Shown here piece by piece: positions 11,000 through 45,393 of a stretch of 64,000 nt of DNA (positions are counted from its first letter, which is position 1; each line of letters begins with the position of its first letter). The notes under the pieces are model-generated. The model ran no database searches and was not told the DNA's origin. It was given only the letters and a program-made list of their open reading frames with translations. Both the position numbers and the translations under genes were made by a program. The stretch lies in assembly GCF_054482525.1 (NCBI RefSeq), contig NZ_CM137006.1; one strand, 5' to 3'.

Positions 11000-11145
11000 C
11001 TGAAACGGGAAAGCCCCTCCCGAGGAAGGGGCCATAAATAAGGAAAGGGTCATGATGAAGCTACTCATCATCGTGGTGCTCTTAGTCATTAGCTACCCAG
11101 CATACTAAGACTACCAGGGCGGGGGAAACCCCGCTCTACCCTCAC
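11000..11145 (-). ncRNA. sibB: Sib-family antisense sRNA (antitoxin) overlapping ibsB; boundaries approximate
   Basis: A minus-strand promoter-like element lies downstream of the ibs stop (TTGACA as reverse complement of 11174-11179; weak -10 near 11151-11156). A minus-strand hairpin followed by a U-rich tract lies near 11000-11040. The extent is inferred, not mapped. Confidence 0.4.
11052..11108 (+). CDS. ibsB: Ibs-family type I toxin, 18-aa hydrophobic peptide (MMKLLIIVVLLVISYPAY)
   Basis: Hand-translated ORF preceded by the SD-like AGGAAAGGG. The peptide matches the Ibs toxin family. The A/B assignment is from memory of the K-12 peptides and the copy nearest mdtA. Confidence 0.75.
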   Translation: MMKLLIIVVLLVISYPAY

Positions 11146-11329
11146 TCCTGAAAGTATGCCTTCACGATAAGATTGTCAATCTGCAGGCTTTGCAGTCTGC
11201 GATCCTGCCAGCAAATATTCTTTGCGAGACGTTACGCAATAATCACACTGGAAACTATTTTATCCGCAAGTCAGCGATAGACTGCATACAGGGCGAAAGG
11301 AGGTAAGCCGACGATTTCAGCGGGACGCT

Positions 11330-11480
11330 GAAACGGGAAACCCTCTCCCGGAGAAGAGGGCTTTTAATAAGGAAAGGGTTATGATGAAGCACGTCATCAT
11401 ACTGGTGATACTCTTAGTGATTAGCTTCCAGGCTTACTAAGAACACCAGGGGGAGGGGGAAACCTCTCCCTAACCCTCAC
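11330..11480 (-). ncRNA. sibA: Sib-family antisense sRNA (antitoxin) overlapping ibsA; boundaries approximate
   Basis: Same architecture as the first unit: minus-strand -35-like TTGACA (reverse complement of 11509-11514) and the hairpin CCCTCT...AGAGGG at ~11341-11360. Confidence 0.4.
11381..11440 (+). CDS. ibsA: Ibs-family type I toxin, 19-aa hydrophobic peptide (MMKHVIILVILLVISFQAY)
   Basis: Hand-translated ORF in the second repeat unit, with an SD-like GGAAAGGG upstream. Confidence 0.75.
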   Translation: MMKHVIILVILLVISFQAY

Positions 11481-11660
11481 TCCTGAAATTATGTCACTCC
11501 GCCCTTAGTGTCAATCGACGGCTCTCCGTTCTTGCGAGGCGAATAGCAAAATTTTCTGCGCCGCCGGGCCTAATTCTGAAAGTTTCTTCGTTTGCTCTTA
11601 TTTCATTGTTGCAGTCGGTATGATACCGGACCTCGATAATTCTCTAAGAAAGGATTTCTT

Positions 11661-16513: not shown

Positions 16514-17371
16514 ATGTATACCCTGAACTGGCAGCCGCCATATGACTGGTCGTGGATGTTGGGATTTCTCGCCGCCCGTGCGGTGAACGGTGTGGAAACG
16601 GTCGCTGACGATTATTATGCCCGTAGTCTGGCGGTGGGCGAATATCGCGGCGTGGTGACTGCTATTCCGGATATAGCCCGCCATACTCTGCACATAAATT
16701 TAAGTGCAGGTTTAGAACCTGTTGCCGCAGAGTGTCTGGCGAAAATGAGCCGCCTGTTTGATCTGCAATGTAACCCGCAGATTGTTAACGGTGCGTTGGG
16801 CAAGTTAGGCGCGGCGCGGCCCGGATTGCGTTTACCCGGCAGTGTTGATGCTTTTGAGCAGGGCGTGCGGGCGATTTTAGGCCAACTGGTGAGCGTGGCG
16901 ATGGCGGCAAAATTGACCGCCAGAGTGGCACAGCTTTATGGCGAACGGCTGGATGATTTTCCGGATTATGTCTGCTTCCCCACGCCTCAGCGGCTGGCTG
17001 CAGCCGACCCGCAGGCATTAAAAGCGTTAGGTATGCCGTTGAAACGGGCAGAGGCACTGATTCATCTGGCAAATGCGGCGCTGGAGGGCACCTTACCAAT
17101 GACAATTCCGGGCGACGTAGAGCAAGCGATGAAAACGCTGCAAACTTTTCCGGGTATCGGGCGCTGGACGGCGAATTATTTCGCCTTACGTGGCTGGCAG
17201 GCGAAAGATGTTTTCCTGCCGGATGATTATCTGATTAAACAGCGATTTCCGGGAATGACACCGGCACAAATCCGCCGTTATGCCGAACGCTGGAAGCCCT
17301 GGCGTTCTTATGCGCTGTTGCATATCTGGTATACGGAAGGCTGGCAACCAGACGGAACGGACGAATTGTAG
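16514..17371 (+). CDS. alkA: DNA-3-methyladenine glycosylase II
   Basis: 285-aa ORF starting MYTLNWQPPYDWSWMLGFLAARAV, with an HhH-GPD glycosylase signature (FPGIGRWTANYFALRG). The 285-aa length agrees with my recollection of AlkA (~282 aa). Confidence 0.9.
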   Translation: MYTLNWQPPYDWSWMLGFLAARAVNGVETVADDYYARSLAVGEYRGVVTAIPDIARHTLHINLSAGLEPVAAECLAKMSRLFDLQCNPQIVNGALGKLGAARPGLRLPGSVDAFEQGVRAILGQLVSVAMAAKLTARVAQLYGERLDDFPDYVCFPTPQRLAAADPQALKALGMPLKRAEALIHLANAALEGTLPMTIPGDVEQAMKTLQTFPGIGRWTANYFALRGWQAKDVFLPDDYLIKQRFPGMTPAQIRRYAERWKPWRSYALLHIWYTEGWQPDGTDEL

Positions 17372-17392
17372 GCCTGATACGCCGCATCAGGC
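17372..17392. repeat. REP-like palindrome between the convergent alkA and dgcE genes; probable bidirectional terminator
   Basis: GCCTGATACGCCGCATCAGGC is an inverted repeat (GCCTGAT / ATCAGGC) immediately after the alkA stop. Confidence 0.6.
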
Positions 17393-17408
17393 GATGGGGA
17401 AGCACGCC

Positions 17409-20400
17409 TTAGTTAATCGCGAAATAACTGCTATTCACCAGCAAATCCAGCGGTTGGGCATCGGCAATCACATCGCCATAAATCAGATCGACGCCGATGC
17501 CAGAAAGCGTATCCATCACCAGGGGTAAAACTACTGGCCCGGCGATGGTCTTCATCCCGAGCCGCTGAGCGTGCCCCTGAATGATCGTAATCAGCATCTC
17601 ATCCATCAAATTTCCCTGCACGTTGGCGCATAACTCACCATCAAGTAGCAGGTAATCTGCCATATTCGCTTTCAGCGAGTTGAAGATTTGCAGATCGCGG
17701 CCCACCTGACTGAATACGATCCGACATCCCGCCAGCCGCAGTTTTTGCACGTTTTCTGCGTGATCTAAAATCGCGTCTGCCGGAATAATCAGATGTAATA
17801 ACCGTGGTGGTAGAGGGCTATTTTCCAGCTGCTCAAGTAGTTCATTCACCAGCGTGGCGCTACTCAAACCGGCAACGGAAAGGGGGAGGGCGATGCTTAA
17901 GCCTTTACTGGCAACCGCTTTTGCGGCCTGCTGGAAAAAATCGTGGAATACCCGTCGGTCAAGAGCATGGCTAAGTGCCGGATCGCTGAAGCTACGACGA
18001 AATGTTTGTTCATCAATAATCTCGCCTTCGCAACTCCAGAGCTTAAGTGAAATCAGCCACAAATTACGTGCTTCCGGGATCCGCGGCGAAGCGACACCGT
18101 GGGCGATCATCATCAACTGATTTTCTTTAATCATCCGCCACTGTTCATCAAGCGATATCGCCGCCCGTTCGCTATGTGTGGCAGCTTGCTGCGGTTCGTA
18201 AATCGTCACCCGGCCCCGTCCACCATTTTTGGAGGCATAACAGGCGATATCAGCCTGCGACATCACTTCAGCTGCCTGATGATTGTTGTCATCAATCAAG
18301 GTAATCCCGGCACTGGCACCTACCCGATGTACTCGTCCTTCCCAGATAAAGTGATAGTCATTCACGGCGCTGATAATGCGTGTAGCGATAAAACGCGCAC
18401 TTTCTACATTACAATCTGGCAGCAGCAGACCAAATTCATCGCCACCGAGTCGCGCCAGCACGTCGCTGGAGCGCAGCATACTCAGCATCAACGACGCCAG
18501 TTCGCGCAGCAAAGCGTCGCCAGCGGCGTGCCCGGCGCTGTCATTCACCGCTTTAAAGCGATCAAGATCGATAAACACCAGTGCATGTCGCTGATGTGTA
18601 CTGTTTACCGTTTGCAGCAGGATGCGTAGTTGCTTCTCAAAACTGGCGCGATTGGCGAGATGCGTCAGTGCATCATGGGAGGCGCTGTAGCTCAGCTGGC
18701 GCAGCATTTTGCGTGATTCGGTGACGTCCTGAATCACCAGAACCGAGCCTATATTGCTGCCGTCCAGAGTACTTAACGGCGTAATACTGTAATGCACGTC
18801 GTAGCTGCCGCCGCTCCGACAGTGCAACACCACATCTTGTTCAATCGCGGAACGTGAGGTGTCGGCACTGTAAATGTTCTCCATTAATGGTCCGTTGTCG
18901 CCAAAAGTAATATGCAACACCGTCAGGAGCGGAACACCTAATGCTTCTTCCTGCGTCCAGCCGCTCATCTTCTCCGCCACCGGATTCATAAAGGTAATTT
19001 TCATCGCCATATCAATACAGACCACGGCTTCACCGATGGAGTCCAGCGTAATGTGCAGGCGCTCTTTTTCCTGAAACAATGCCTCGTTAAGCTGTTTCAC
19101 TTCGGTCATATCCATATTAATGCCGAGCAGGCGTTCGACTTCGCCTTCTTTATTCAGTACCCGGTTAGCGAGGGCGCGGATATGGCGGATGCCATCTTTC
19201 ACGGCAATGCGAAATTCCAGCTTAAAGGGCGAGCGTGATTGCAACGAATCACGAATCACTTTTTCGGCATGCTGGCGATCTTCCGGCAGCACGCACTCGT
19301 ACCACACCTGCCAGTTCGGTTTGATATGTGGAGGAATTTCATACAGCTCGAACATCCGCTTATCCCAGCTAAAAATATTCGGCTTCAACTCCCACTCCCA
19401 GATGCCAATCCCGCCCGCTTCGTTAGCCAGCGTGATGCGCTCCATCAGTTGCTGGTTCACCTGTTCGGTGCGTTTTAGCTCGTTAATGTCTTCAATCTGA
19501 GCGATAAAATAGAGCGGCGTACCATCGGTGTGGCGCACCAGTGAGACGGCAAGCAACGCCCAGACAACATCGCCATTGCGGTTGTAGTAGCGTTTTTCCA
19601 TTGAATAGGTGTTTATTTCACCGCTGATCAGCTTTTCAACCTGTTGCAGATCTTTATTGAGATCCTCCGGCCAGGTCAGTTGCTGAAAGGTGAGTCCGCG
19701 CAGTTCTTCCTGACTGTAACCGAGAAACTGGCAGAGCGCTTTGTTGGATTGCAGCCATTGCCCCTCGGTGCCCACTAATGCCATGCCGATGGCGGAATAT
19801 TCCATCGCGTTACGAAAGCGGGTTTCGCTTTCAGAGATGTGTTTGCGTTCCGCACGAAAGGCATACATCACCATCGTCATGATGTTGGCGGGCAGCAGGA
19901 TCAGCAAAAACGGTAGCCACGGCATATGGCTCATCAGGTATGTACGCGGCGTAGCAAGCAGGGAGGGATCCGCGGCCATCATCAGTGACACCATCATCAC
20001 CGTGGTAAGGAAGATCAAAAAGGCTTCCATTCGTGGCAGGCGCACGGCGCTCCACATCAACAGCACAATAATGAAAGTAAAAGGCCACGGCAGATACAGC
20101 ATCGAAAGCCAGCTTAACGTCAGTGTGATGGCCAACGTGAGCAGCGACTCAAAAAGCAACCGTGGGTTGCGATGGCGCAGCAGATAGTGTGGTTTAAATA
20201 ACAATCCCAGTGGCACCAGTGCCAGTGCGCCGATGGATTCTGACAGTACCCATATCAAAAATGCCCTGAGAGGATCGTCTCCGGGCGTCAGCAGGATAAC
20301 CAGAACACCCCCTAACAGAGGTGGAACAATGGCGCTGCCGAGTGCCAGACGCAGCCAGTCAGCCAGATTTTGCAATGGGTTATACCACGGCAGCAATATA

Positions 20401-20726
20401 CGCAGTAGCACTGCTCCGACCACGGCTTCAACAATATTGATGGTCGTCCAGGTCATGTTCAGCGAGCTGGTGGAAAAAAGCAGGATGGATGCGGCGATAT
20501 TTCCCAGCGAGCAGCTCAGCGCAATCCCCGGCCACATGCGCCCGGCATGGCGATAAAACGCCACCATCATGATGGACGTCGGGAACCACAGTGGGGCGAG
20601 TTGGGTGCCAAATTGCGAAAGCTCAAGCGAGAAAAGGGTAAAGATAAACGAGACTAAACCTAAACTGACCAGGTGAAGCAGCGGGTGGGGCAGGGCAATT
20701 AATACATGCTGTGATTGTTTGCTCAT
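17409..20726 (-). CDS. dgcE: Diguanylate cyclase DgcE: membrane sensor domain, PAS domains, GGDEF and EAL domains
   Basis: 1105-aa ORF with a multi-pass hydrophobic N-terminus, PAS-like repeats, a GGDEF motif (RLGGDEFGLLL) and a C-terminal EAL-like region. Length matches E. coli YegE/DgcE. Confidence 0.9.
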   Translation of the reverse strand: MSKQSQHVLIALPHPLLHLVSLGLVSFIFTLFSLELSQFGTQLAPLWFPTSIMMVAFYRHAGRMWPGIALSCSLGNIAASILLFSTSSLNMTWTTINIVEAVVGAVLLRILLPWYNPLQNLADWLRLALGSAIVPPLLGGVLVILLTPGDDPLRAFLIWVLSESIGALALVPLGLLFKPHYLLRHRNPRLLFESLLTLAITLTLSWLSMLYLPWPFTFIIVLLMWSAVRLPRMEAFLIFLTTVMMVSLMMAADPSLLATPRTYLMSHMPWLPFLLILLPANIMTMVMYAFRAERKHISESETRFRNAMEYSAIGMALVGTEGQWLQSNKALCQFLGYSQEELRGLTFQQLTWPEDLNKDLQQVEKLISGEINTYSMEKRYYNRNGDVVWALLAVSLVRHTDGTPLYFIAQIEDINELKRTEQVNQQLMERITLANEAGGIGIWEWELKPNIFSWDKRMFELYEIPPHIKPNWQVWYECVLPEDRQHAEKVIRDSLQSRSPFKLEFRIAVKDGIRHIRALANRVLNKEGEVERLLGINMDMTEVKQLNEALFQEKERLHITLDSIGEAVVCIDMAMKITFMNPVAEKMSGWTQEEALGVPLLTVLHITFGDNGPLMENIYSADTSRSAIEQDVVLHCRSGGSYDVHYSITPLSTLDGSNIGSVLVIQDVTESRKMLRQLSYSASHDALTHLANRASFEKQLRILLQTVNSTHQRHALVFIDLDRFKAVNDSAGHAAGDALLRELASLMLSMLRSSDVLARLGGDEFGLLLPDCNVESARFIATRIISAVNDYHFIWEGRVHRVGASAGITLIDDNNHQAAEVMSQADIACYASKNGGRGRVTIYEPQQAATHSERAAISLDEQWRMIKENQLMMIAHGVASPRIPEARNLWLISLKLWSCEGEIIDEQTFRRSFSDPALSHALDRRVFHDFFQQAAKAVASKGLSIALPLSVAGLSSATLVNELLEQLENSPLPPRLLHLIIPADAILDHAENVQKLRLAGCRIVFSQVGRDLQIFNSLKANMADYLLLDGELCANVQGNLMDEMLITIIQGHAQRLGMKTIAGPVVLPLVMDTLSGIGVDLIYGDVIADAQPLDLLVNSSYFAIN

Positions 20727-21043
20727 TACCGCTTTATCCGCAAGACCAGGTCGCCAGTATTCGTTTCTGTGTTTATGCTAGTACAAAAGTTTTACATTTT
20801 ATATGCGAATTGCTCATAAAGTGACGTAAAGGCGGATAATTTGCGCAACTGCGTATAACATTTTTTACCTTGCATTAAAACTGAACAACGTAATTTGCCA
20901 CCGGGAATTATTCGTCAACAATTACTCTGAGCGCGCGGCAACGCTATTCGACTGGTATCAGGCGGATGAAATCCCTATAATTGCCGCGTTTGGCGCTTCG
21001 TCGCCCCCTTCCTAACATCCAGGTTAATCAGGTCGCTAAATAT

Positions 21044-21685
21044 ATGACTGATCAGTCTCATCAGTGCGTCATTATCGGTATCGCTGGCGCATCGGCTTCC
21101 GGCAAGAGTCTTATTGCCAGTACCCTTTATCGTGAATTACGTGAGCAAGTCGGTGATGAACACATCGGCGTAATTCCCGAAGACTGCTATTACAAAGATC
21201 AAAGCCATCTGTCGATGGAAGAACGCGTTAAGACCAACTACGACCATCCCAGCGCGATGGATCACAGCCTGCTGCTTGAGCATTTACAAGCATTGAAACG
21301 CGGCTCGGCCATTGACCTGCCGGTTTACAGCTATGTTGAACATACGCGTATGAAAGAAACGGTGACGGTTGAGCCGAAGAAAGTCATCATTCTCGAAGGC
21401 ATTTTGCTGCTGACGGATGCGCGTTTGCGTGATGAACTTAACTTCTCAATTTTCGTTGATACCCCGCTGGATATCTGCCTGATGCGCCGCATCAAGCGTG
21501 ACGTTAACGAGCGTGGGCGTTCAATGGATTCAGTGATGGCGCAATATCAAAAAACCGTGCGTCCGATGTTCCTGCAATTCATTGAGCCTTCTAAACAATA
21601 TGCGGACATTATCGTGCCGCGCGGCGGGAAAAACCGCATCGCCATCGATATATTGAAAGCGAAAATAAGTCAGTTCTTTGAATAA
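21044..21685 (+). CDS. udk: Uridine/cytidine kinase
   Basis: I place the start at the ATG at 21044 ([22 protein letters not shown], Walker A), giving 213 aa. The ORF-track extension from 20981 has no support. Confidence 0.9.
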
Positions 21686-21776
21686 GCTTGATAAATTGTG
21701 TACCGTTCAGTGATAACCTGGTATGCCCTTGACGTAATTGGCGTTAAGGGAGTGATGCGCGAAAGGAGAAAATGCC

Positions 21777-22358
21777 ATGCGTCTGTGTGACCGAGATATT
21801 GAAGCCTGGCTTGATGAAGGCCGTTTGTCGATCAACCCACGTCCGCCAGTGGAGCGTATTAACGGCGCGACGGTGGATGTGCGCCTGGGCAATAAATTTC
21901 GTACCTTCCGTGGTCACACGGCAGCGTTTATCGATCTGAGCGGTCCCAAAGATGAAGTGAGCGCCGCGCTTGACCGCGTGATGAGCGATGAGATCGTTCT
22001 CGATGAAAGCGAGGCGTTCTATCTTCACCCAGGAGAGCTGGCGCTGGCGGTGACGCTGGAGTCGGTGACGCTGCCAGCCGATCTGGTGGGCTGGCTGGAC
22101 GGGCGTTCCTCATTGGCGCGTCTGGGGCTGATGGTGCACGTCACCGCGCACCGCATCGATCCGGGCTGGTCTGGCTGCATTGTGCTGGAGTTCTACAACT
22201 CCGGTAAGCTGCCGCTGGCGCTGCGTCCGGGCATGTTAATTGGTGCGCTGAGCTTTGAGCCGCTTTCCGGCCCGGCGGCGCGACCATACAACCGCCGCGA
22301 AGATGCGAAATATCGCAACCAGCAGGGCGCGGTAGCCAGCCGAATCGATAAAGACTAA
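21777..22358 (+). CDS. dcd: dCTP deaminase
   Basis: 193-aa ORF starting [19 protein letters not shown], immediately downstream of udk as in E. coli. Confidence 0.92.
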
Positions 22359-22379
22359 TTCAGGCCCATTGAGGATACC

Positions 22380-24233
22380 ATGAGACGATTTCTGACGACG
22401 CTGATGATACTCCTGGTCGTGCTGGTGGCCGGGTTATCTGCGTTAGTGTTGCTGGTGAATCCGAATGATTTCCGCGACTATATGGTCAAGCAAGTTGCTG
22501 CACGTAGCGGTTATCAATTGCAGCTCGACGGGCCACTGCGTTGGCACGTCTGGCCGCAGCTTAGTATCCTCTCCGGGCGAATGTCTCTCACCGCCCAGGG
22601 CGCGAGCCAGCCACTGGTTCGCGCCGACAACATGCGTCTGGACGTGGCGCTTTTACCACTGCTGAGTCATCAACTGAGCGTTAAGCAGGTAATGCTAAAA
22701 GGGGCAGTGATCCAACTGACGCCGCAGACGGAAGCGGTACGCAGTGAAGATGCCCCGGTTGCACCACGCGACAATACCTTGCCGGATCTGTCAGACGATC
22801 GCGGATGGTCGTTTGATATATCCAGTCTTAAGGTGGCGGACAGCGTGCTGGTGTTCCAGCATGAAGATGACGAGCAGGTGACAATCCGCAATATTCGCCT
22901 GCAAATGGAACAAGATCCCCAACATCGTGGTTCATTTGAGTTCTCCGGGCGGGTTAATCGCGATCAGCGCGACCTCACATTATCCCTTAACGGTACGGTA
23001 GATGCTTCTGATTATCCGCATGATTTAACGGCGGCTATTGAACAAATTAACTGGCAGTTGCAGGGTGCAGATTTACCAAAACAAGGTATTCAGGGGCAGG
23101 GGAGTTTCCAGGCCCAGTGGCAGGAGTCACATAAACGCCTTTCATTTAACCAAATCAGTTTGACTGCCAATGACAGTACGCTGAGCGGGCAAGCACAGGT
23201 CACGCTGACAGAGAAACCGGAATGGCAGCTGAGGCTGCAATTCCCGCAACTGAATCTTGACAACCTCATCCCGCTTAAAGAAACAGCGAACGGTGAAAAC
23301 GGTGCCGCGCAGCAGGGGCAGAGCCAATCAACGTTGCCGCGCCCGGTCATTTCTTCGCGTATTGATGAACCGGCCTATCAGGGACTGCAAGGCTTTACGG
23401 CTGATATTTTGTTGCAGGCCAGTAACGTGCGCTGGCGCGGAATGAATTTTACAGATGTTGCCACGCAAATGACCAACAAGTCGGGTCTGCTGGAAATTAC
23501 TCAACTGCAGGGCAAACTTAACGGTGGACAGGTTTCGCTGCCGGGCACGCTGGACGCGACATCAATAAATCCGCGGATAAGCTTCCAGCCACGGCTGGAA
23601 AACGTTGAGATTGGCACCATTCTGAAGGCGTTTAACTATCCGATTTCGTTGACCGGAAAGATGTCACTGGCTGGTGATTTCTCCGGTGCTGACATAGATG
23701 CCGATGCATTCCGCCACAACTGGCAAGGACAGGCACATGTCGAAATGACTGACACGCGCATGGAAGGGATGAACTTCCAGCAGATGATTCAGCAAGCGGT
23801 AGAGCGTAATGGTGGTGATGTGAAGGCCGCTGAAAACTTCGATAACGTGACGCGTCTTGACCGCTTTACCACCGATTTGACGTTGAAGGATGGCGTCGTG
23901 ACGTTAAACGACATGCAAGGTCAATCGTCAGTGCTGGCGCTGACAGGGGAAGGCATGTTGAATTTGGCAGATCAAACCTGCGACACCCAGTTTGACATTC
24001 GTGTGATTGGCGGTTGGAACGGGGAAAGCAAACTGATTGATTTCCTCAAAGAAACGCCAGTACCGCTGCGGGTTTATGGCAACTGGCAGCAACTTAATTA
24101 CAGCCTGCAAGTTGACCAGCTGCTACGCAAACATCTACAGGACGAAGCGAAACGTCGCCTGAATGACTGGGCCGAGCGGAATAAAGATTCCCGCAATGGC
24201 AAAGATGTGAAGAAGTTGCTGGAGAAGATGTAG
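22380..24233 (+). CDS. asmA: AsmA (outer-membrane biogenesis, AsmA-like family)
   Basis: 617-aa ORF with an N-terminal signal-anchor (MRRFLTTLMILLVVLVAGLSALVLL); position and length match asmA. Confidence 0.88.
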   Translation: MRRFLTTLMILLVVLVAGLSALVLLVNPNDFRDYMVKQVAARSGYQLQLDGPLRWHVWPQLSILSGRMSLTAQGASQPLVRADNMRLDVALLPLLSHQLSVKQVMLKGAVIQLTPQTEAVRSEDAPVAPRDNTLPDLSDDRGWSFDISSLKVADSVLVFQHEDDEQVTIRNIRLQMEQDPQHRGSFEFSGRVNRDQRDLTLSLNGTVDASDYPHDLTAAIEQINWQLQGADLPKQGIQGQGSFQAQWQESHKRLSFNQISLTANDSTLSGQAQVTLTEKPEWQLRLQFPQLNLDNLIPLKETANGENGAAQQGQSQSTLPRPVISSRIDEPAYQGLQGFTADILLQASNVRWRGMNFTDVATQMTNKSGLLEITQLQGKLNGGQVSLPGTLDATSINPRISFQPRLENVEIGTILKAFNYPISLTGKMSLAGDFSGADIDADAFRHNWQGQAHVEMTDTRMEGMNFQQMIQQAVERNGGDVKAAENFDNVTRLDRFTTDLTLKDGVVTLNDMQGQSSVLALTGEGMLNLADQTCDTQFDIRVIGGWNGESKLIDFLKETPVPLRVYGNWQQLNYSLQVDQLLRKHLQDEAKRRLNDWAERNKDSRNGKDVKKLLEKM

Positions 24234-24257
24234 GTTACCAGGTGACCTGTCCTGTAG

Positions 24258-24290
24258 GCCTGATAAGACGCGTGAAGCGTCGCATCAGGC
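24258..24290. repeat. REP (repetitive extragenic palindrome) between the convergent asmA and yegH genes
   Basis: GCCTGATAAGACGCGTGAAGCGTCGCATCAGGC is a classic REP-type inverted repeat. Confidence 0.7.
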
Positions 24291-24525
24291 GTTCGTGGCG
24301 GCACCATTATATTCTGAATATGTAAGTTCGAAGGCTGTTCCGTTCACTTGATGTTCCTCGTTACTATGGAACGCTCAAGCCGGTGAACGTGCCAGGGTGG
24401 CTCAATCTCCACCACCCTGGCAACCCGGACCCACACCCCCGCTGTGATGTCCATGTACCACAGACAACGCTTCATTGCTGAAGTTATAAGGCGTTACGCA
24501 GCATTGGGTAAAATGGCCGATACCA

Positions 24526-26109
24526 TCACACCTCGTATTCCATCTCGCCATCCTTATGCAGCGGAATAATCTGCACCTTCTGCACGCGATGGCTTTCCAC
24601 CTGCAACGTTTTAAGCAAATAATCCCCCACCTGAACTTCTTCGCCAGGTTTTGGAATACGCTGCAAATATTCCATCAGCAGCCCGGCAATGGTGTGATAT
24701 TCACGTTTCTCGTCCAGCGGCAGCGGCACATATTGCACCAGATCTTCCAGTGGCATATGACCATTCGCCGTCCAGGAACCGTCCGCATTCTTCTGAATAT
24801 CATGGCGGGCGTCGATCTCTTCCACTTCGTTCGGTAAGTTACCGGCAATGGTTTCTGTGACGTCACTTAATGTCACAATCCCTTCCACTGAACCAAACTC
24901 ATCCACCACAAAAGCAAAGTGCGTGCGGGCATTACGGAACTGCTCCAGGGCTGGTAACAACGGCAAGGTTTCCGGGAACACCAGCGGCTGGCGAATCAAC
25001 ACCCGCAGGTTGAGCGGTTCGCCGCGCAGTGACTGTTGTAGCAGGTCGATAACGTGAACAACACCGAGCAAATCTTCCGCGTCGTCACCGTCGGTAACCA
25101 CCAGCCGCGTATGCTGATTTCGCTCCAGCAACTGGCGGATTTCCTCTTCCGGCGCGTTGAGATCGATATGCTCAATATCGTGGCGCGACGTCATAATGCT
25201 GCTGACGGTACGCTGGTTAAGATTAAGGACCCGCTCAATCATCCGCCGCTCCTGCGGATTAAAGATCTGCTGGTTACCATGATCCACCAGCATGGACGCG
25301 GTTTCGGCATCCAGTTCCGCATCTTCTTTTTGCCCGCTAAGCAGGCGCATTACCGCTTCGGTAGTCCGCTGGCGCAGTGTCTGGTTAGCGGAAAGAAAAC
25401 GTCGTCGGTTAAAGATAGCCAACTGATTGAGCGCCTCGATCATCACCGAGAAGCCAATGGCGGCGTACAGGTAGCCTTTCGGAATGACGAAGCCGAAACC
25501 TTCTGCCACCAGGCTAAAGCCAATCATCAACAGGAAGCTTAAGCAGAGAATAACGATGGTCGGGTGACTGTTAACAAATTGCGTTAACGGCTTGCTGGCC
25601 ATCAGCATCAGGCTGATAGCGATAACCACGGCGGCCATCATGACCAGTAAATGGTCGACCATCCCGACGGCGGTAATCACTGAGTCGAGTGAGAAGATGG
25701 CGTCCAGTACCACAATTTGTGTCACCACCCCCCAGAACTTCGCACCTTTGCGTTGTGTGGGGTTATTGCTGTCTTTCCCCTCCAGCCGTTCGTTCAGCTC
25801 CATCGTGGCTTTGAACAGCAGGAAGAAACCACCAAACAGCATGATTAAGTCGCGGGCGCTAAAGGTAAACGAGCGGAAGCTGAACAGCGGTTGAGTCAGG
25901 GTGACCAGCCAGGAGATTGACGCCAGCAGTAACAGGCGCATTAACATCGCCAGCAGCAGCCCGGTAACCCGTGCGCGGTCGCGCTGCTTCGGTGGTAGTT
26001 TTTCGGCGAGGATGGCAATAAAGACCAGGTTATCAATGCCGAGGACCAGTTCGATCACAATCAGCGTGATTAACCCGGCCCAGATAGACGGATCGGCAAT
26101 CCATTCCAT
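24526..26109 (-). CDS. yegH: TerC-like membrane domain plus CBS pair and CorC/HlyC C-terminal domain transporter-associated protein
   Basis: The ORF track gives 549 aa. I place the start at the ATG (reverse complement of 26107-26109, [16 protein letters not shown]...), giving 527 aa. Confidence 0.8.
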
Positions 26110-26550
26110 AGTAAGTACAAAACCTATTCGTTGTATGACAAATGTCACAATTCGATCATGGATAAATCGGGGCAAAAATGCAATGTTGCAGCACTATTTA
26201 TCTCATATTATTTGAGGTTTATAACCTCACATTATCCCTGAATTAAAAGTGGTAATAATAAAACATTATTTAAGAAATATCGCATGTGGAGACACTATAT
26301 TAAATATTGTCAACCTAAAGAAACTCCTAAAAACCATATTGAATGACACTTAATATAATTCTTAAAAATAGCCAATTGCCGAATTGTTACCTTGCCTGCT
26401 ATTCCGTTAGCTGTAACACTTCCTCCTGCATTATTGGAGAGCCAATATTCAATTACCATAATGTCACCTTATATTCGGAAGTTAATTTCCGCAATAACCC
26501 TTTCTCATCAACGACTGTATGTTGAGAGGGTTTTAAAAATTAAGCTAAAT

Positions 26551-26589
26551 CAGTGTATTGGTAGCTAAAAAGCCAGGGGCGGTAGCGTG
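26551..26589 (+). promoter_or_regulatory. JUMPstart element with ops site (GGCGGTAGCGTG) in the wza leader; RfaH-dependent antitermination signal
   Basis: CAGTGTATTGGTAGCTAAAAAGCCAGGGGCGGTAGCGTG contains the two GGTAGC half-sites and the ops core at 26578-26589, about 180 bp upstream of the wza start. Confidence 0.85.
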
Positions 26590-26767
26590 TCTGGATGCCT
26601 GAAAGACCAGTCTGAATTATTCTGTCAATAGCCTGCGGATGAAATCAATTTTTTTAGGACTGATGCCAGTTAAATTTTTATTCAATTAACTGCAAGGTAA
26701 ATGTGCATGGCGACATTGCTATTAACAGTGCACAGGATAATTACTCTGCCAAAGTGATAAATAAACA

Positions 26768-27907
26768 ATGATGAAATCCAAAATGAAATTGATGCCATTA
26801 TTGGTGTCAGTAACCTTGATAAGCGGTTGCACAGTACTTCCGGGCAGCAATATGTCGACGATGGGGAAAGACGTCATCAAACAGCAGGACGCTGATTTCG
26901 ATCTCGACAAAATGGTGAATGTTTATCCGTTGACCCCGCGCCTGATTGATCAATTACGACCACGCCCGAATGTAGCGCGCCCCAATATGACGCTGGAAAG
27001 TGAGATCGCGAATTATCAGTATCGCGTCGGGCCGGGGGACGTTCTTAATGTCACCGTCTGGGATCACCCGGAACTCACCACGCCAGCCGGTCAGTACCGC
27101 AGCTCCAGCGACACCGGCAACTGGGTACAGCCTGACGGCACTATGTTTTACCCGTATATCGGCAAGGTTCACGTGGTGGGGAAAACGCTCGCTGAAATCC
27201 GCAGTGATATTACCGGGCGCTTAGCGACGTACATCGCTGACCCGCAGGTGGACGTTAATATCGCCGCCTTCCGCTCGCAAAAAGCCTATATCTCCGGTCA
27301 GGTGAATAAATCCGGTCAACAGGCCATCACCAACGTGCCACTGACCATTCTTGATGCCATCAACGCCGCAGGTGGCCTGACCGACACCGCTGACTGGCGC
27401 AACGTAGTGCTAACACACAATGGTCGTGAAGAGCGCATTTCTTTGCAGGCGCTGATGCAAAACGGCGACCTCAATCAGAACCGACTGCTTTACCCCGGCG
27501 ATATTCTCTACGTGCCGCGTAATGATGATCTGAAAGTGTTTGTGATGGGTGAAGTGAAGAAACAGAGCACCCTGAAAATGGACTTTAGCGGCATGACCCT
27601 GACTGAAGCCCTTGGTAATGCTGAAGGCATCGACATGACCACCTCCAACGCCAGCGGCATCTTTGTCATTCGTCCGCTGAAAGGCGAGGGTGGGCGTAAC
27701 GGCAAGATTGCCAATATCTACCAGCTGGATATGTCCGATGCCACGTCGCTGGTGATGGCGACAGAATTCCGCCTGCAACCTTATGACGTGGTGTATGTCA
27801 CCACCGCACCGGTTTCCCGCTGGAACCGTCTGATCAATCAGTTGCTGCCAACTATTAGCGGTGTCCGTTACATGACGGATACAGCCAGCGACATTCATAA
27901 CTGGTAA
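26768..27907 (+). CDS. wza: Outer-membrane polysaccharide export lipoprotein Wza
   Basis: 379-aa ORF with a lipoprotein signal ([21 protein letters not shown]); first gene of the colanic acid cluster. Confidence 0.93.
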
Positions 27908-27912
27908 TCGTC

Positions 27913-28356
27913 ATGTTTAACAACATTTTAGTTGTCTGTGTCGGCAATATTTGCCGTTCCCCGACGGCGGAACGCTTACTGCAACGTTATCACCCGGAGC
28001 TGAAAGTGGAGTCCGCTGGACTCGGCGCGCTGGTCGGTAAGGGCGCTGATCCTACCGCTATCAGCGTCGCCGCAGAACATCAACTGTCTCTGGAAGGTCA
28101 CTGTGCCCGTCAAATCAGCCGCAGCCTGTGTCGCAACTACGACCTGATTTTGACCATGGAAAAGCGCCATATCGAACGCTTATGCGAGATGGCACCTGAG
28201 ATGCGCGGCAAAGTGATGCTGTTTGGTCACTGGGATAACGAATGTGAAATCCCCGATCCGTATCGCAAAAGCCGGGAAACGTTTGCAGCGGTGTACACAT
28301 TACTTGAACGGTCTGCCCGCCAGTGGGCGCAGGCATTGAACGCAGAGCAGGTATAA
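27913..28356 (+). CDS. wzb: Low-molecular-weight protein-tyrosine phosphatase Wzb
   Basis: 147-aa ORF with the active-site loop CVGNICRSP. Confidence 0.93.
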   Translation: MFNNILVVCVGNICRSPTAERLLQRYHPELKVESAGLGALVGKGADPTAISVAAEHQLSLEGHCARQISRSLCRNYDLILTMEKRHIERLCEMAPEMRGKVMLFGHWDNECEIPDPYRKSRETFAAVYTLLERSARQWAQALNAEQV

Positions 28357-28358
28357 GA

Positions 28359-30521
28359 ATGACAGAAAAAGTAAAACAACATGCCGCTCCGGTAACGGGC
28401 AGTGATGAAATCGATATTGGTCGCCTGGTCGGCACCGTCATTGAAGCGCGCTGGTGGGTGATTGGCATCACCGCCGTATTTGCCCTCTGTGCCGTGGTTT
28501 ACACCTTCTTCGCCACGCCGATATATAGCGCCGACGCACTGGTACAAATCGAACAAAGCAGCGGCAATTCGCTGGTGCAGGATATCGGATCGGCATTAGC
28601 CAACAAACCGCCAGCATCGGACGCTGAGATCCAGTTGATTCGTTCGCGTCTGGTGCTTGGTAAAACGGTGGACGATCTCGACCTCGATATTGCGGTGAGC
28701 AAAAACACGTTCCCGATTTTCGGTGCGGGCTGGGATCGTTTGATGGGACGCCAGAACGAGACGGTGAAAGTGACCACCTTTAACCGCCCGAAAGAGATGG
28801 CGGATCAAGTGTTTACGCTTAATGTGCTTGATGACAAAAACTACACCTTGAGCAGTGATGGCGGCTTTAGCGCCCGTGGGCAAGCGGGCCAGATGCTGAA
28901 AAAAGAAGGCGTCACGCTGATGGTTGAAGCCATTCACGCCAGCCCGGGCACTGAGTTTACCGTCACCAAATACTCCACGCTGGGGATGATCAACCAACTG
29001 CAAAACAGCCTGACGGTAACGGAGAACGGCAAAGACGCAGGCGTACTGAGCCTGACTTATACCGGTGAAGATCGCGAACAGATCCGCGACATTCTTAACA
29101 GTATCGCCCGTAACTATCAGGAGCAAAATATTGAGCGCAAATCGGCGGAAGCGTCGAAAAGCCTCGCCTTCCTCGCGCAACAGTTACCGGAAGTACGTAG
29201 CCGCCTTGATGTTGCCGAAAACAAACTGAATGCCTTCCGTCAGGATAAAGATTCTGTTGATCTGCCGCTGGAAGCAAAAGCGGTGCTCGATTCGATGGTG
29301 AACATCGACGCACAGTTGAACGAACTGACCTTTAAAGAGGCAGAAATCTCCAAGCTGTACACCAAAGTTCACCCGGCGTACCGCACGCTGCTGGAGAAAC
29401 GGCAGGCGCTGGAAGACGAAAAAGCCAAACTTAACGGTCGCGTAACGGCGATGCCGAAAACCCAGCAGGAGATTGTGCGCCTGACCCGCGATGTCGAGTC
29501 TGGTCAGCAGGTCTATATGCAACTGCTGAATAAAGAGCAGGAGCTGAAAATCACCGAAGCCAGCACCGTCGGCGATGTGCGCATTGTTGACCCGGCAATC
29601 ACTCAGCCTGGTGTGCTGAAACCGAAGAAAGGGCTGATTATCCTCGGCGCGATTATCCTCGGCCTGATGCTCTCTATCGTGGGTGTGCTGCTGCGCTCGT
29701 TGTTCAATCGCGGCATCGAAAGCCCACAGGTGCTGGAAGAACACGGTATTAGCGTCTATGCCAGCATCCCGCTGTCGGAATGGCAGAAAGCGCGCGATAG
29801 CGTCAAAACCATCAAAGGGGTTAAACGCTATAAACAGAGCCAGCTACTGGCGGTGGGGAATCCAACCGATCTGGCGATTGAAGCCATCCGCAGTCTGCGT
29901 ACCAGTCTGCACTTCGCGATGATGCAGGCGCAGAACAATGTGTTGATGATGACCGGGGTTAGCCCGTCAATCGGTAAAACCTTTGTCTGCGCTAACCTGG
30001 CGGCGGTGATCAGTCAGACCAATAAACGGGTGTTGTTGATCGACTGCGATATGCGCAAAGGCTACACCCACGAGCTGTTGGGCACCAATAACGTCAATGG
30101 CCTGTCGGAAATTTTGATTGGTCAGGGCGATATTACTACCGCTGCTAAACCGACCTCTATTGCCAAATTTGACCTGATCCCGCGCGGTCAGGTACCGCCA
30201 AATCCTTCTGAACTGTTGATGAGCGAACGCTTTGCCGAACTGGTGAACTGGGCGAGTAAAAACTATGACCTGGTGTTGATTGATACGCCGCCGATTCTGG
30301 CAGTGACCGATGCGGCAATTGTTGGTCGTCATGTCGGAACCACGTTAATGGTGGCGCGTTATGCGGTCAACACATTGAAAGAAGTGGAAACCAGTCTGAG
30401 CCGCTTTGAGCAAAATGGTATTCCGGTGAAAGGGGTGATTCTCAACTCCATCTTCCGCCGCGCCAGCGCGTATCAGGATTATGGCTATTACGAATACGAA
30501 TATAAGTCGGATGCGAAATAA
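28359..30521 (+). CDS. wzc: Tyrosine autokinase / polysaccharide co-polymerase Wzc
   Basis: I place the start at the ATG at 28359 (MTEKVKQHAAPV...), giving 720 aa. Features: two membrane segments, Walker A (GVSPSIGKT) and a C-terminal tyrosine-rich tail (YQDYGYYEYEY). Confidence 0.92.
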   Translation: MTEKVKQHAAPVTGSDEIDIGRLVGTVIEARWWVIGITAVFALCAVVYTFFATPIYSADALVQIEQSSGNSLVQDIGSALANKPPASDAEIQLIRSRLVLGKTVDDLDLDIAVSKNTFPIFGAGWDRLMGRQNETVKVTTFNRPKEMADQVFTLNVLDDKNYTLSSDGGFSARGQAGQMLKKEGVTLMVEAIHASPGTEFTVTKYSTLGMINQLQNSLTVTENGKDAGVLSLTYTGEDREQIRDILNSIARNYQEQNIERKSAEASKSLAFLAQQLPEVRSRLDVAENKLNAFRQDKDSVDLPLEAKAVLDSMVNIDAQLNELTFKEAEISKLYTKVHPAYRTLLEKRQALEDEKAKLNGRVTAMPKTQQEIVRLTRDVESGQQVYMQLLNKEQELKITEASTVGDVRIVDPAITQPGVLKPKKGLIILGAIILGLMLSIVGVLLRSLFNRGIESPQVLEEHGISVYASIPLSEWQKARDSVKTIKGVKRYKQSQLLAVGNPTDLAIEAIRSLRTSLHFAMMQAQNNVLMMTGVSPSIGKTFVCANLAAVISQTNKRVLLIDCDMRKGYTHELLGTNNVNGLSEILIGQGDITTAAKPTSIAKFDLIPRGQVPPNPSELLMSERFAELVNWASKNYDLVLIDTPPILAVTDAAIVGRHVGTTLMVARYAVNTLKEVETSLSRFEQNGIPVKGVILNSIFRRASAYQDYGYYEYEYKSDAK

Positions 30522-30549
30522 CGACGCCTGCATTCGCACCGCCCCGTAG

Positions 30550-30579
30550 GCCGGATAAGGCGCTCACGCCGCATCCGGC
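30550..30579. repeat. REP-like palindrome between wzc and wcaA
   Basis: GCCGGATAAGGCGCTCACGCCGCATCCGGC is an inverted repeat of the REP family. Confidence 0.65.
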
Positions 30580-40921: not shown

Positions 40922-41022
40922 CAGTTGAATAATCAACCGGATTAATTCTCCGGTAAATAACGACAAAAACAAAATTGGCCGTTTCGGTCAGGGCCAACTA
41001 TTGCCTGAAAAAGGGTAACGAC

Positions 41023-42393: not shown

Positions 42394-42404
42394 TGTCGGA
42401 TCTT

Positions 42405-42428
42405 CCCTTACCCCACTGCGGGTAAGGG
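42405..42428 (+). other. Stem-loop (9-bp stem) in the cpsG-wcaJ intergenic region; no U-tract, so probably a processing or stability element rather than a terminator
   Basis: CCCTTACCC cactgc GGGTAAGGG is a perfect inverted repeat. Confidence 0.4.
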
Positions 42429-42447
42429 GCTAATAACAGGAACAACG

Positions 42448-45322: not shown

Positions 45323-45393
45323 GTTGTTGTTTTAGGCACTGGCAATAAAAACAACAACATAACCTCACCTGGCATCAAATTTATGAGGAAAAA

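Follow-up and report, generated by a model that had tools for sequence, protein, structure and literature searches.

Three inverted repeats lie in gene gaps in and around the colanic acid operon of Escherichia coli. Do they mark transcript boundaries, and can the one inside the operon shift the balance between its export and biosynthetic messages? We addressed these questions in a 64,000-nt stretch of contig NZ_CM137006.1 (assembly GCF_054482525.1; this whole stretch is termed the window), an E. coli chromosome segment that extends from baeR to the O-antigen cluster. The original prediction placed repetitive extragenic palindromic (REP) elements in the alkA/dgcE, asmA/yegH and wzc/wcaA gaps, took them as markers of convergent or operon-boundary gaps, and suggested that the third could modulate the ratio of the wza-wzb-wzc transcript to the downstream transcript. 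The three elements are ordinary, already described E. coli REPs. As to what they do, we consider the following account rather probable: as ordinary members of the REP/bacterial interspersed mosaic element (BIME) family they are transcribed with the flanking mRNAs and most likely serve as generic hairpins that block 3'-to-5' exonucleases, not as terminators. The wzc/wcaA REP would modestly favour the upstream message, the asmA REP lies within a 3' untranslated region (UTR), and the alkA stub supplies a stop codon.

Identity of the three elements

A relaxed custom scan for stems with the complementary arms GCCKGAT...ATCMGGC was run over the entire 64 kb. Zero-mismatch stems were found only at 17372-17392 (site 1, alkA/dgcE), 24258-24290 (site 2, asmA/yegH) and 30550-30579 (site 3, wzc/wcaA), and all three inverted repeats were thus present at the predicted positions. 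These coordinates span the stems alone; a conserved 5' GTAG foot starts 4 nt before each stem, at 17368, 24254 and 30546, and is oriented on the window + strand in all three cases. The window therefore contains exactly three REP elements (Table 1). The scan was custom-made because a generic inverted-repeat finder with an 8-nt seed was blind to all three REPs, whose stem mismatches interrupt the seed.

Motif counts gave the same picture. The GTAG foot plus stem motif, TATCMGGCCTAC, allowing at most one mismatch, had 3 matches in the window versus 0.28 expected. A 37-nt degenerate REP consensus matched 24254-24290 with 0 mismatches (0.00 expected), and both consensus halves matched site 3 with 0 mismatches. 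The 5' half-motif, GCCKGATGCGRCG, had 5 matches versus 0.48 expected; the two extra matches belong to one palindrome in the udk coding sequence (CDS). A two-base AA/GC stem mismatch, which forms an internal loop in the folds, was observed at sites 2 and 3; site 1 has neither this mismatch nor an inner stem. A 39-nt query from site 3 (blastn, word size 11) had matches in 5425 of the 5426 complete E. coli genomes and in 5427 records reached the ceiling of 40 places, so that each genome has at least 40 copies; it is thus a dispersed high-copy repeat. The corresponding 45-nt megablast query from site 2 matched 31 genomes and is uninformative for copy number, because its 28-nt exact word covers a rare loop variant. 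All three elements lie 3' of stop codons, except that the GTAG of site 1 overlaps the alkA stop codon by 3 nt, and all three loci vary between strains. At the gathering threshold, Rfam reported no family at any of the three REP sites.

REPs and BIMEs of E. coli, also termed palindromic units, were reportedly described by Stern and by Gilson in 1984, and by Bachellier. The family comprises y, z1 and z2 types, and 84 of its 584 K-12 copies are single (Ton-Hoang 2012, PMC3333891). The conserved GTAG and the two-base stem mismatch define REPs and are both required for TnpA_REP binding, and REP copy number at one locus differs from strain to strain (PMC3333891). Sites 2 and 3 are members of the REP/BIME family, showing every defining feature that could be tested, and site 1 is a remnant. 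Judged by the sequence features in PMC3333891, site 3 classifies as a y-type REP and site 2 as a z2-type REP. Shared with the family are the common consensus (at site 1 its outer stem and foot), the GTAG foot, the location past gene 3' ends, the high copy number, as measured for site 3, and a copy number that varies between strains, as at alkA/dgcE and wzc/wcaA; sites 2 and 3 share the AA/GC mismatch as well and did not differ from the family in any respect, whereas site 1 lacks the inner stem and the mismatch and overlaps a stop codon. REPs, imperfect palindromes of ~35 nt, are spread and rearranged by the REP-associated tyrosine transposase (RAYT) and by recombination, and pile up past gene 3' ends, places where they are harmless. 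The cognate RAYT gene, tnpA_REP (yafM), was not found within the 64-kb window.

The udk palindrome (21477-21497, GCCTGATGCGCCGCATCAAGC) was not counted as a REP, since it lacks the GTAG foot and lies within the annotated udk CDS (21044-21685). Read in frame it encodes CLMRRIK, and we take it as a coding coincidence able to fool motif scans.

Gene names and orientations were taken from the RefSeq annotation of strain SCU-102, which is collinear with the open reading frames of the window across 64 kb; those given in the original prediction proved correct. An 801-nt probe around site 1 had matches in 5407 of the 5426 complete E. coli genomes, the set used for all E. coli frequency counts, and identity to SCU-102 was 99.9%. 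The gene order is baeSR, mdtABCD, ibs/sib, yegL-pphC-yegI, yegD, alkA(+), dgcE(-), udk, dcd, asmA(+), yegH(-), the colanic acid operon from wza to wcaM, gne, galF and an O11-type O-antigen cluster. The alkA/dgcE and asmA/yegH pairs are convergent, and wzc(+) and wcaA(+) are co-directional inside the colanic acid operon.

Table 1. Features of the window (positions count from its first nucleotide)
Feature	Position	Strand	Sequence	Remarks
Decayed REP remnant, classed as z2-type	17368..17392	+	GTAGGCCTGATACGCCGCATCAGGC	site 1, alkA/dgcE; motif, stem scan, alignment to K-12 and O157
alkA stop codon	17369..17371	+	TAG	TAG of the REP GTAG foot; alkA CDS 16514-17371
Canonical single REP, classed as z2-type	24254..24290	+	GTAGGCCTGATAAGACGCGTGAAGCGTCGCATCAGGC	site 2, asmA 3' UTR; GTAG starts 20 nt past asmA stop codon
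Perfect 11-bp non-REP hairpin	24390..24422	.	TGCCAGGGTGG-11 nt-CCACCCTGGCA	inverted repeat I19; -22.0, -24.4 kcal/mol
JUMPstart/ops element	26551..26589	+		upstream of wza; Rfam RF01707, 57.3 bits vs gathering score 35
Single REP, classed as y-type	30546..30579	+	GTAGGCCGGATAAGGCGCTCACGCCGCATCCGGC	site 3, wzc/wcaA, inside colanic acid operon
SIB antitoxin RNA, full-length	11037..11179	-		RF00113, 142 bits
SIB antitoxin RNA, full-length	11366..11514	-		RF00113, 150 bits
algC RNA motif	40969..41018			cpsB-cpsG gap; 78.2 bits vs gathering score 33.8
Non-REP hairpin	42404..42429		CCCTTACCCC...GGGTAAGGGG	cpsG-wcaJ gap; -17.1 kcal/mol, z -1.7
Non-REP hairpin	45323..45358		GTTGTTGTTTT...AAAACAACAAC	wzxC-wcaK gap; -17.2 kcal/mol, z -3.2

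The wzc/wcaA gap in E. coli and in other genera

The wzc/wcaA gap of the window is 92 nt long. The wzc stop codon occupies 30519-30521, 24 nt separate it from the GTAG, and 34 nt separate the stem from the wcaA ATG (30614). RNA folding, proposed in the original prediction as a check on this element, gave a stable hairpin of -22.8 kcal/mol (z -3.0); the sequence has one loop substitution relative to K-12. A scan for sigma-70-like promoter sites between 30522 and 30613 found none, so no wcaA promoter was detected in the gap.

The 92-nt allele was present in 2697 of 5426 genomes, and two longer alleles, of 128 and 177 nt, were present in 2025 genomes together; these classes cover all but ~700 genomes. 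In the 128-nt allele, a variant REP of opposite orientation (GTCGGATGCGATGCTGACGCATCTTATCCGACCTAC) is fused to a half y REP. The 177-nt allele is the 128-nt allele extended by 49 nt, among them a full y REP; an 18-nt half-REP direct repeat borders this indel, and pairing between the two inverted REPs of the allele gives a long hairpin of -56.5 kcal/mol. By an estimate from evenly spaced rows of the ranking, some 1250 genomes have the 177-nt allele and some 800 the 128-nt allele. The gap thus has at least three alleles, with one to ~2.5 REPs, and at least 4722 of 5426 genomes have one or more REP hairpins there. All O157 strains examined by Iguchi et al. (2011, PMC3158064) conserve a REP between wcaA and wzc. 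The gap is a polymorphic repeat hot spot whose alleles differ widely in hairpin strength; their modest value is that they offer a way of asking whether the export:synthesis stoichiometry of capsule genes depends on REPs.

Two further observations concern these alleles. In the variant GTCGGAT...ATCCGAC (positions 341-376 of L004, strain KO11FL, and 398-433 of L005, strain XJ55), paired changes relative to the y consensus (C to T on one arm, G to A on the other) keep the stem; since many genomes have further loci that match this variant, it may represent a REP sub-family of its own. NZ_CP026085.1, a 4.83-Mb sequence labelled 'DH5alpha', has the 177-nt allele at 100% identity although K-12 MG1655 has the 92-nt allele, and its label or lineage looks inconsistent.

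To survey other species, one genome per species was scanned with WcaA as the query, giving 80 loci, 79 of which have wzc directly upstream, and the occupants of the gap were classified. A REP-type element was found in 13 species loci (Escherichia, Citrobacter) and a palindrome of the CCCTCTCCC/GGGAGAGGG type, folding at -20 to -51 kcal/mol, in 37 (Enterobacter, Lelliottia, Kluyvera, Trabulsiella and others). Other hairpins occupy 18 species loci, among them composites in Salmonella arizonae and diarizonae, Kosakonia, and three Citrobacter-like half-REP loci. The remaining 11 (Leclercia, Silvania, Cedecea, Pluralibacter, Pseudescherichia) have a gap of 10-28 nt and no hairpin. The gap is at least 56 nt in 68 of 79 species; 67 of these have a hairpin of -9 to -51 kcal/mol, and the value for L076 is -24.4 kcal/mol. 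The Enterobacter-type palindrome, which we presume to resemble BoxC, is itself dispersed; E. coli genomes have it at a median of 17 places. So the dispersed palindrome that is active in a given lineage is usually what occupies the wzc-wcaA junction, which can also be empty.

In the three half-REP loci (L052, Citrobacter sp. Cu233; L083, C. braakii; L085, a Raoultella-labelled metagenome-assembled genome), a half REP, TGCCGGATGGCGGC, is followed by a ~60-nt palindrome, ...TTCGAGTTGCAGGAA(A)GCCAACGCA.ATGCAAC.TGAAGTATGAC.GG, as if this had been inserted into a REP or had replaced it. We take the palindrome to be a short ERIC/IRU element.

The convergent gaps asmA/yegH and alkA/dgcE

Site 2 had a folding energy of -26.3 kcal/mol on one strand and -21.9 kcal/mol on the other (z -3.6 and -3.1). 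It is kept in K-12 but for one loop base, and the exact loop variant of the window occurs only in the 31 genomes mentioned above. With an E-value threshold, Rfam gave a weak match to the REP-derived naRNA4 (31.6 bits; gathering score 59.5), which is best read as generic REP resemblance. The 292-nt gap also contains the perfect non-REP hairpin at 24390-24422, which has no T-run on either strand.

Term-seq of K-12 (Adams et al. 2021, PMC7815308) detected 3' ends at 2139566(-), with a score of 42,363, and at 2139607(+), with a score of ~2,800. Their 61-nt flanking strings, located both in K-12 and in the window, put them at window positions 24426(+) (asmA direction, strong) and 24385(-) (yegH direction), past either foot of the non-REP hairpin by 4-5 nt. 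Adams et al. class them as 'orphan' ends (PMC7815308), which may be those of the asmA and yegH mRNAs or of a separate small RNA. In the same tables there was no 3' end at the asmA REP itself. The idea of the REP as a gap marker holds for asmA/yegH as far as location is concerned; the transcript boundary that it implied is not borne out by the K-12 data, in which the 3' ends of both strands flank another hairpin ~100 nt further on. This cautions against taking every REP for a transcript boundary.

Rho-dependent read-through regions were found downstream of both convergent-gap REPs in K-12, at 2139476(-), with a Rho score of 7.7, and at 2146686(+), with a score of 6.8. The former peaks farther downstream of the asmA REP, antisense to yegH. 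Since no 3' end maps to the REP and the Rho-dependent region lies beyond it, asmA transcripts read through the REP, and the Term-seq ends are at the 24390-24422 hairpin instead. They are probably terminated by Rho inside antisense yegH, with the steady-state end at the first hairpin met from the 3' side and not at the REP. The non-REP hairpin behaves as a bidirectional hairpin that defines 3' ends; it would account for the detected ends, and the asmA REP may be a second-line barrier within the 3' UTR. Just past the yegH stop codon, ~71 nt of the window (24432-24502) are unrelated to ~55 nt of K-12, with good homology on both sides, indicating a segment replacement.

The alkA/dgcE gap is 37 nt in the window versus 108 nt in K-12, and site 1 is the sole structure there. 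Alignment showed that K-12 and O157 have a tail-to-tail pair of y and z2 REPs at this locus, in which the K-12 allele resembles BIME-2. Site 1 retains the 5' GTAG and a 7-bp outer stem; relative to K-12, its inner stem and loop are gone through an 11-nt deletion. The window allele also lacks a 51-nt block comprising the last two alkA codons, the stop codon, an 8-nt spacer and the y REP. Because this block, with the K-12 stop codon, is missing, alkA reads on into the linker and its stop codon is supplied by the REP GTAG. AlkA is consequently 285 amino acids long in the window and ends in ...PDGTDEL (rewritten at 17351-17371), versus 282 amino acids ending in ...PDEA in K-12. The short (one-REP) allele was present in 2336 of 5426 genomes and the long (two-REP) allele in 3056. 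We infer that the short allele is a deletion derivative, because the 51-nt block starts within the CDS and does not match a REP unit. Some modest value attaches to the finding that many strains owe their alkA stop codon to a REP, and the rewritten C-terminus is a small example of a repeat reshaping a gene end.

On the dgcE-sense strand site 1 folded at -13.6 kcal/mol (z -3.4); the value for the alkA-sense strand was -13.1 kcal/mol (z -2.0). According to the summary of Liang 2015 in PMC12306157, a REP less than 16 nt from a stop codon down-regulates translation. The stop-to-stem distance at alkA is 0 nt in the window and 8 nt in K-12, within this range. The other genes lie outside it: the distances to the GTAG and to the stem are 24 and 28 nt for wzc and 20 and 24 nt for asmA, and the distance for dgcE is 16 nt. 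Compared with the translational down-regulation of Liang, Rudd and Deutscher (2015), alkA has the appropriate distance, but its hairpin is a weak 7-bp stub. The stub abutting the stop codon may slightly depress AlkA synthesis through ribosome stalling.

Possible roles of the REPs and other structured elements of the operon

Intrinsic termination was rejected for all three REPs. The terminator scan showed no T-run after any of them on either strand, and the flanking bases (GATGGGG, GTTCGTGG and AAGCAAAC) contain no U-tract. The hairpins of sites 2 and 3, at -22 to -26 kcal/mol with z about -3, are stable. REP hairpins are barriers to 3'-to-5' exonucleases and thereby protect the mRNA upstream of them (Newbury 1987 and Khemici and Carpousis 2004, as cited in PMC3158064 and PMC6061677), and Rho often terminates beyond a REP, after which exonucleases trim back to a hairpin (PMC6061677). 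The K-12 Rho-dependent regions past the convergent-gap REPs fit this model of Rho termination and trimming. At wzc/wcaA, the hairpin would shield the wza-wzb-wzc segment once the mRNA is cut or terminated downstream, and this would modestly raise the ratio of export-machinery to glycosyltransferase message. An effect of the wzc/wcaA REP on colanic acid gene expression, as suggested in the original prediction and in line with the classical REP model, is plausible.

Such an arrangement has well-known counterparts. The intercistronic REPs of malE-malF and hisJ-hisQ reportedly stabilise the upstream mRNA segment, in work attributed to Higgins (1982), Newbury (1987) and Stern (1988). Like them, the wzc/wcaA REP is intercistronic in a long operon and forms a stable hairpin without a U-tract; it also follows genes (those for the export proteins Wza, Wzb and Wzc) whose products are plausibly needed in excess of the downstream enzymes. 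In contrast to theirs, its stabilising role is putative, and the hairpin is missing from 11 of 79 related species.

Several results weigh against a protective role. The K-12 Term-seq tables (PMC7815308) contain no 3' end at the alkA/dgcE BIME, as at the asmA REP, and none in the wzc/wcaA gap (21334xx), where the operon was silent under the conditions used. The genes flanking the three REPs are not listed in the RepRanger supplementary tables. The hairpin of site 1 is weak, and on the alkA-sense strand it is not clearly above shuffled sequences, 9 of 200 of which were as stable. In one RNA-seq data set on Rcs induction, the fold changes were 47 for wza, 45 for wzb, 17 for wzc, 11 for wcaA, 72 for wcaE and 12 for wcaF, a profile without a clear step at the wzc/wcaA REP. 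The JUMPstart element is the RfaH loading site of the operon that contains this REP, and RfaH loaded there is expected to suppress Rho-dependent attenuation at the REP. Finally, 14% of the species (11 of 79) have no wzc-wcaA hairpin; therefore, any effect must be dispensable.

These results leave some weight for the possibility that the REPs are neutral passengers, present because regions past gene 3' ends tolerate insertions, with no measurable effect on flanking genes. Presence, absence and decay between strains at two of the three loci, the stub at site 1 with its inner stem deleted, and the unrelated dispersed repeats or empty gaps of other genera at wzc/wcaA are all consistent with it, as are the lack of mapped 3' ends at REPs in K-12 and of a clean expression step across the cps operon. 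However, transcribed hairpins as stable as these (-22 to -26 kcal/mol) are a known obstacle to exonucleases (Newbury 1987, as cited in PMC3158064 and PMC6061677), and neutrality must also accommodate the persistence of a REP hairpin at wzc/wcaA through three alleles, in at least 4722 genomes, and the prevalence of hairpins in the 68 species with longer gaps.

A role of the wzc/wcaA REP as a true attenuator, in which partial Rho-dependent, BIME-type termination lowers transcription from wcaA onward and RfaH tunes the read-through, is unlikely in our judgement, although the idea has precedents. A stem-loop after wzc in the group 1 capsule cluster of E. coli K30 was reportedly described as a transcriptional attenuator by Rahn and Whitfield in 2003. 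For the colanic acid operon, Lacour et al. (2008, PMC2516531) state that there is a 'stem-loop transcriptional attenuator immediately after wzc', but the statement rests on a review that they cite and not on experiment at wzc/wcaA. Klebsiella cps loci have stem-loops at the same position after wzc (PMC3438125), and BIME-associated attenuation has been described (Espeli 2001, as cited in PMC6061677). The wzc/wcaA REP resembles the stem-loop of group 1 capsule and Klebsiella cps clusters in its position after wzc and ahead of the biosynthetic genes, with a JUMPstart element upstream, and Rho-dependent regions do follow the other two REP loci in K-12. It differs in being a generic REP copy without a U-run, not a locus-specific, terminator-like structure, so that intrinsic termination is improbable. 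Translated wcaA begins 34 nt past the stem, which leaves little untranslated RNA for Rho loading, and the Rcs-induction profile shows no step. Because RfaH, which antagonises Rho, should oppose it at this REP, we rank post-transcriptional protection above true attenuation. Both the REP at wzc/wcaA and the notion of a post-wzc attenuator are already published; the finding is known and ordinary, and its significance is low, REPs being among the longest-known bacterial repeats.

We regard it as very unlikely that the REPs work mainly at the DNA level, be it by binding gyrase, HU or Pol I or by serving as junctions for recombination, and in this way shape the chromosome or promote the exchange of neighbouring polysaccharide loci. 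REPs have been reported at the recombination junctions on the flanks of the O157 O-antigen cluster (PMC3158064), BIMEs are substrates for cleavage and recombination by TnpA_REP in vitro (PMC3333891), and the mosaic wzc/wcaA alleles share the 18-nt half-REP direct repeat that borders the 49-nt indel. However, the REPs of the window are single, unlike the tandem BIME-2 arrays tied to gyrase binding, and no evidence of a recombination breakpoint was found at the three sites in this strain. The match of site 2 to the nucleoid RNA naRNA4 points in the same direction as a role at the DNA level, but is far below the gathering score.

Beyond generic exonuclease protection, a more ambitious and rather doubtful idea is that the wzc-wcaA junction is selected for any strong hairpin, with different Enterobacteriaceae recruiting different palindromes: REPs in Escherichia and Citrobacter, the CCCTCTCCC/GGGAGAGGG type in Enterobacter, Lelliottia and Kluyvera and, in some Citrobacter, a short ERIC-like element. 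With hairpins of about -20, -23 and -56 kcal/mol, the E. coli alleles would then form a natural series that tunes the export:glycosyltransferase ratio. Separately, and with the same reserve, the REP-supplied alkA stop codon in ~43% of E. coli may lower AlkA output through stalling.

At the gathering threshold, the only Rfam matches in the window were two SIB RNAs, two JUMPstart elements and the algC motif. The SIB RNAs lie opposite two annotated ibs toxin genes and represent the known Ibs/Sib type I toxin-antitoxin pair. The algC motif immediately precedes the phosphomannomutase gene and gives the colanic acid operon a second structured element between genes; in other strains REPs have been reported in this cpsB-cpsG gap (PMC3158064), which has none in the window. 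The cpsG-wcaJ and wzxC-wcaK gaps each contain a non-REP hairpin (Table 1), and up to four REPs have been reported between wcaK and wzxC in other strains.

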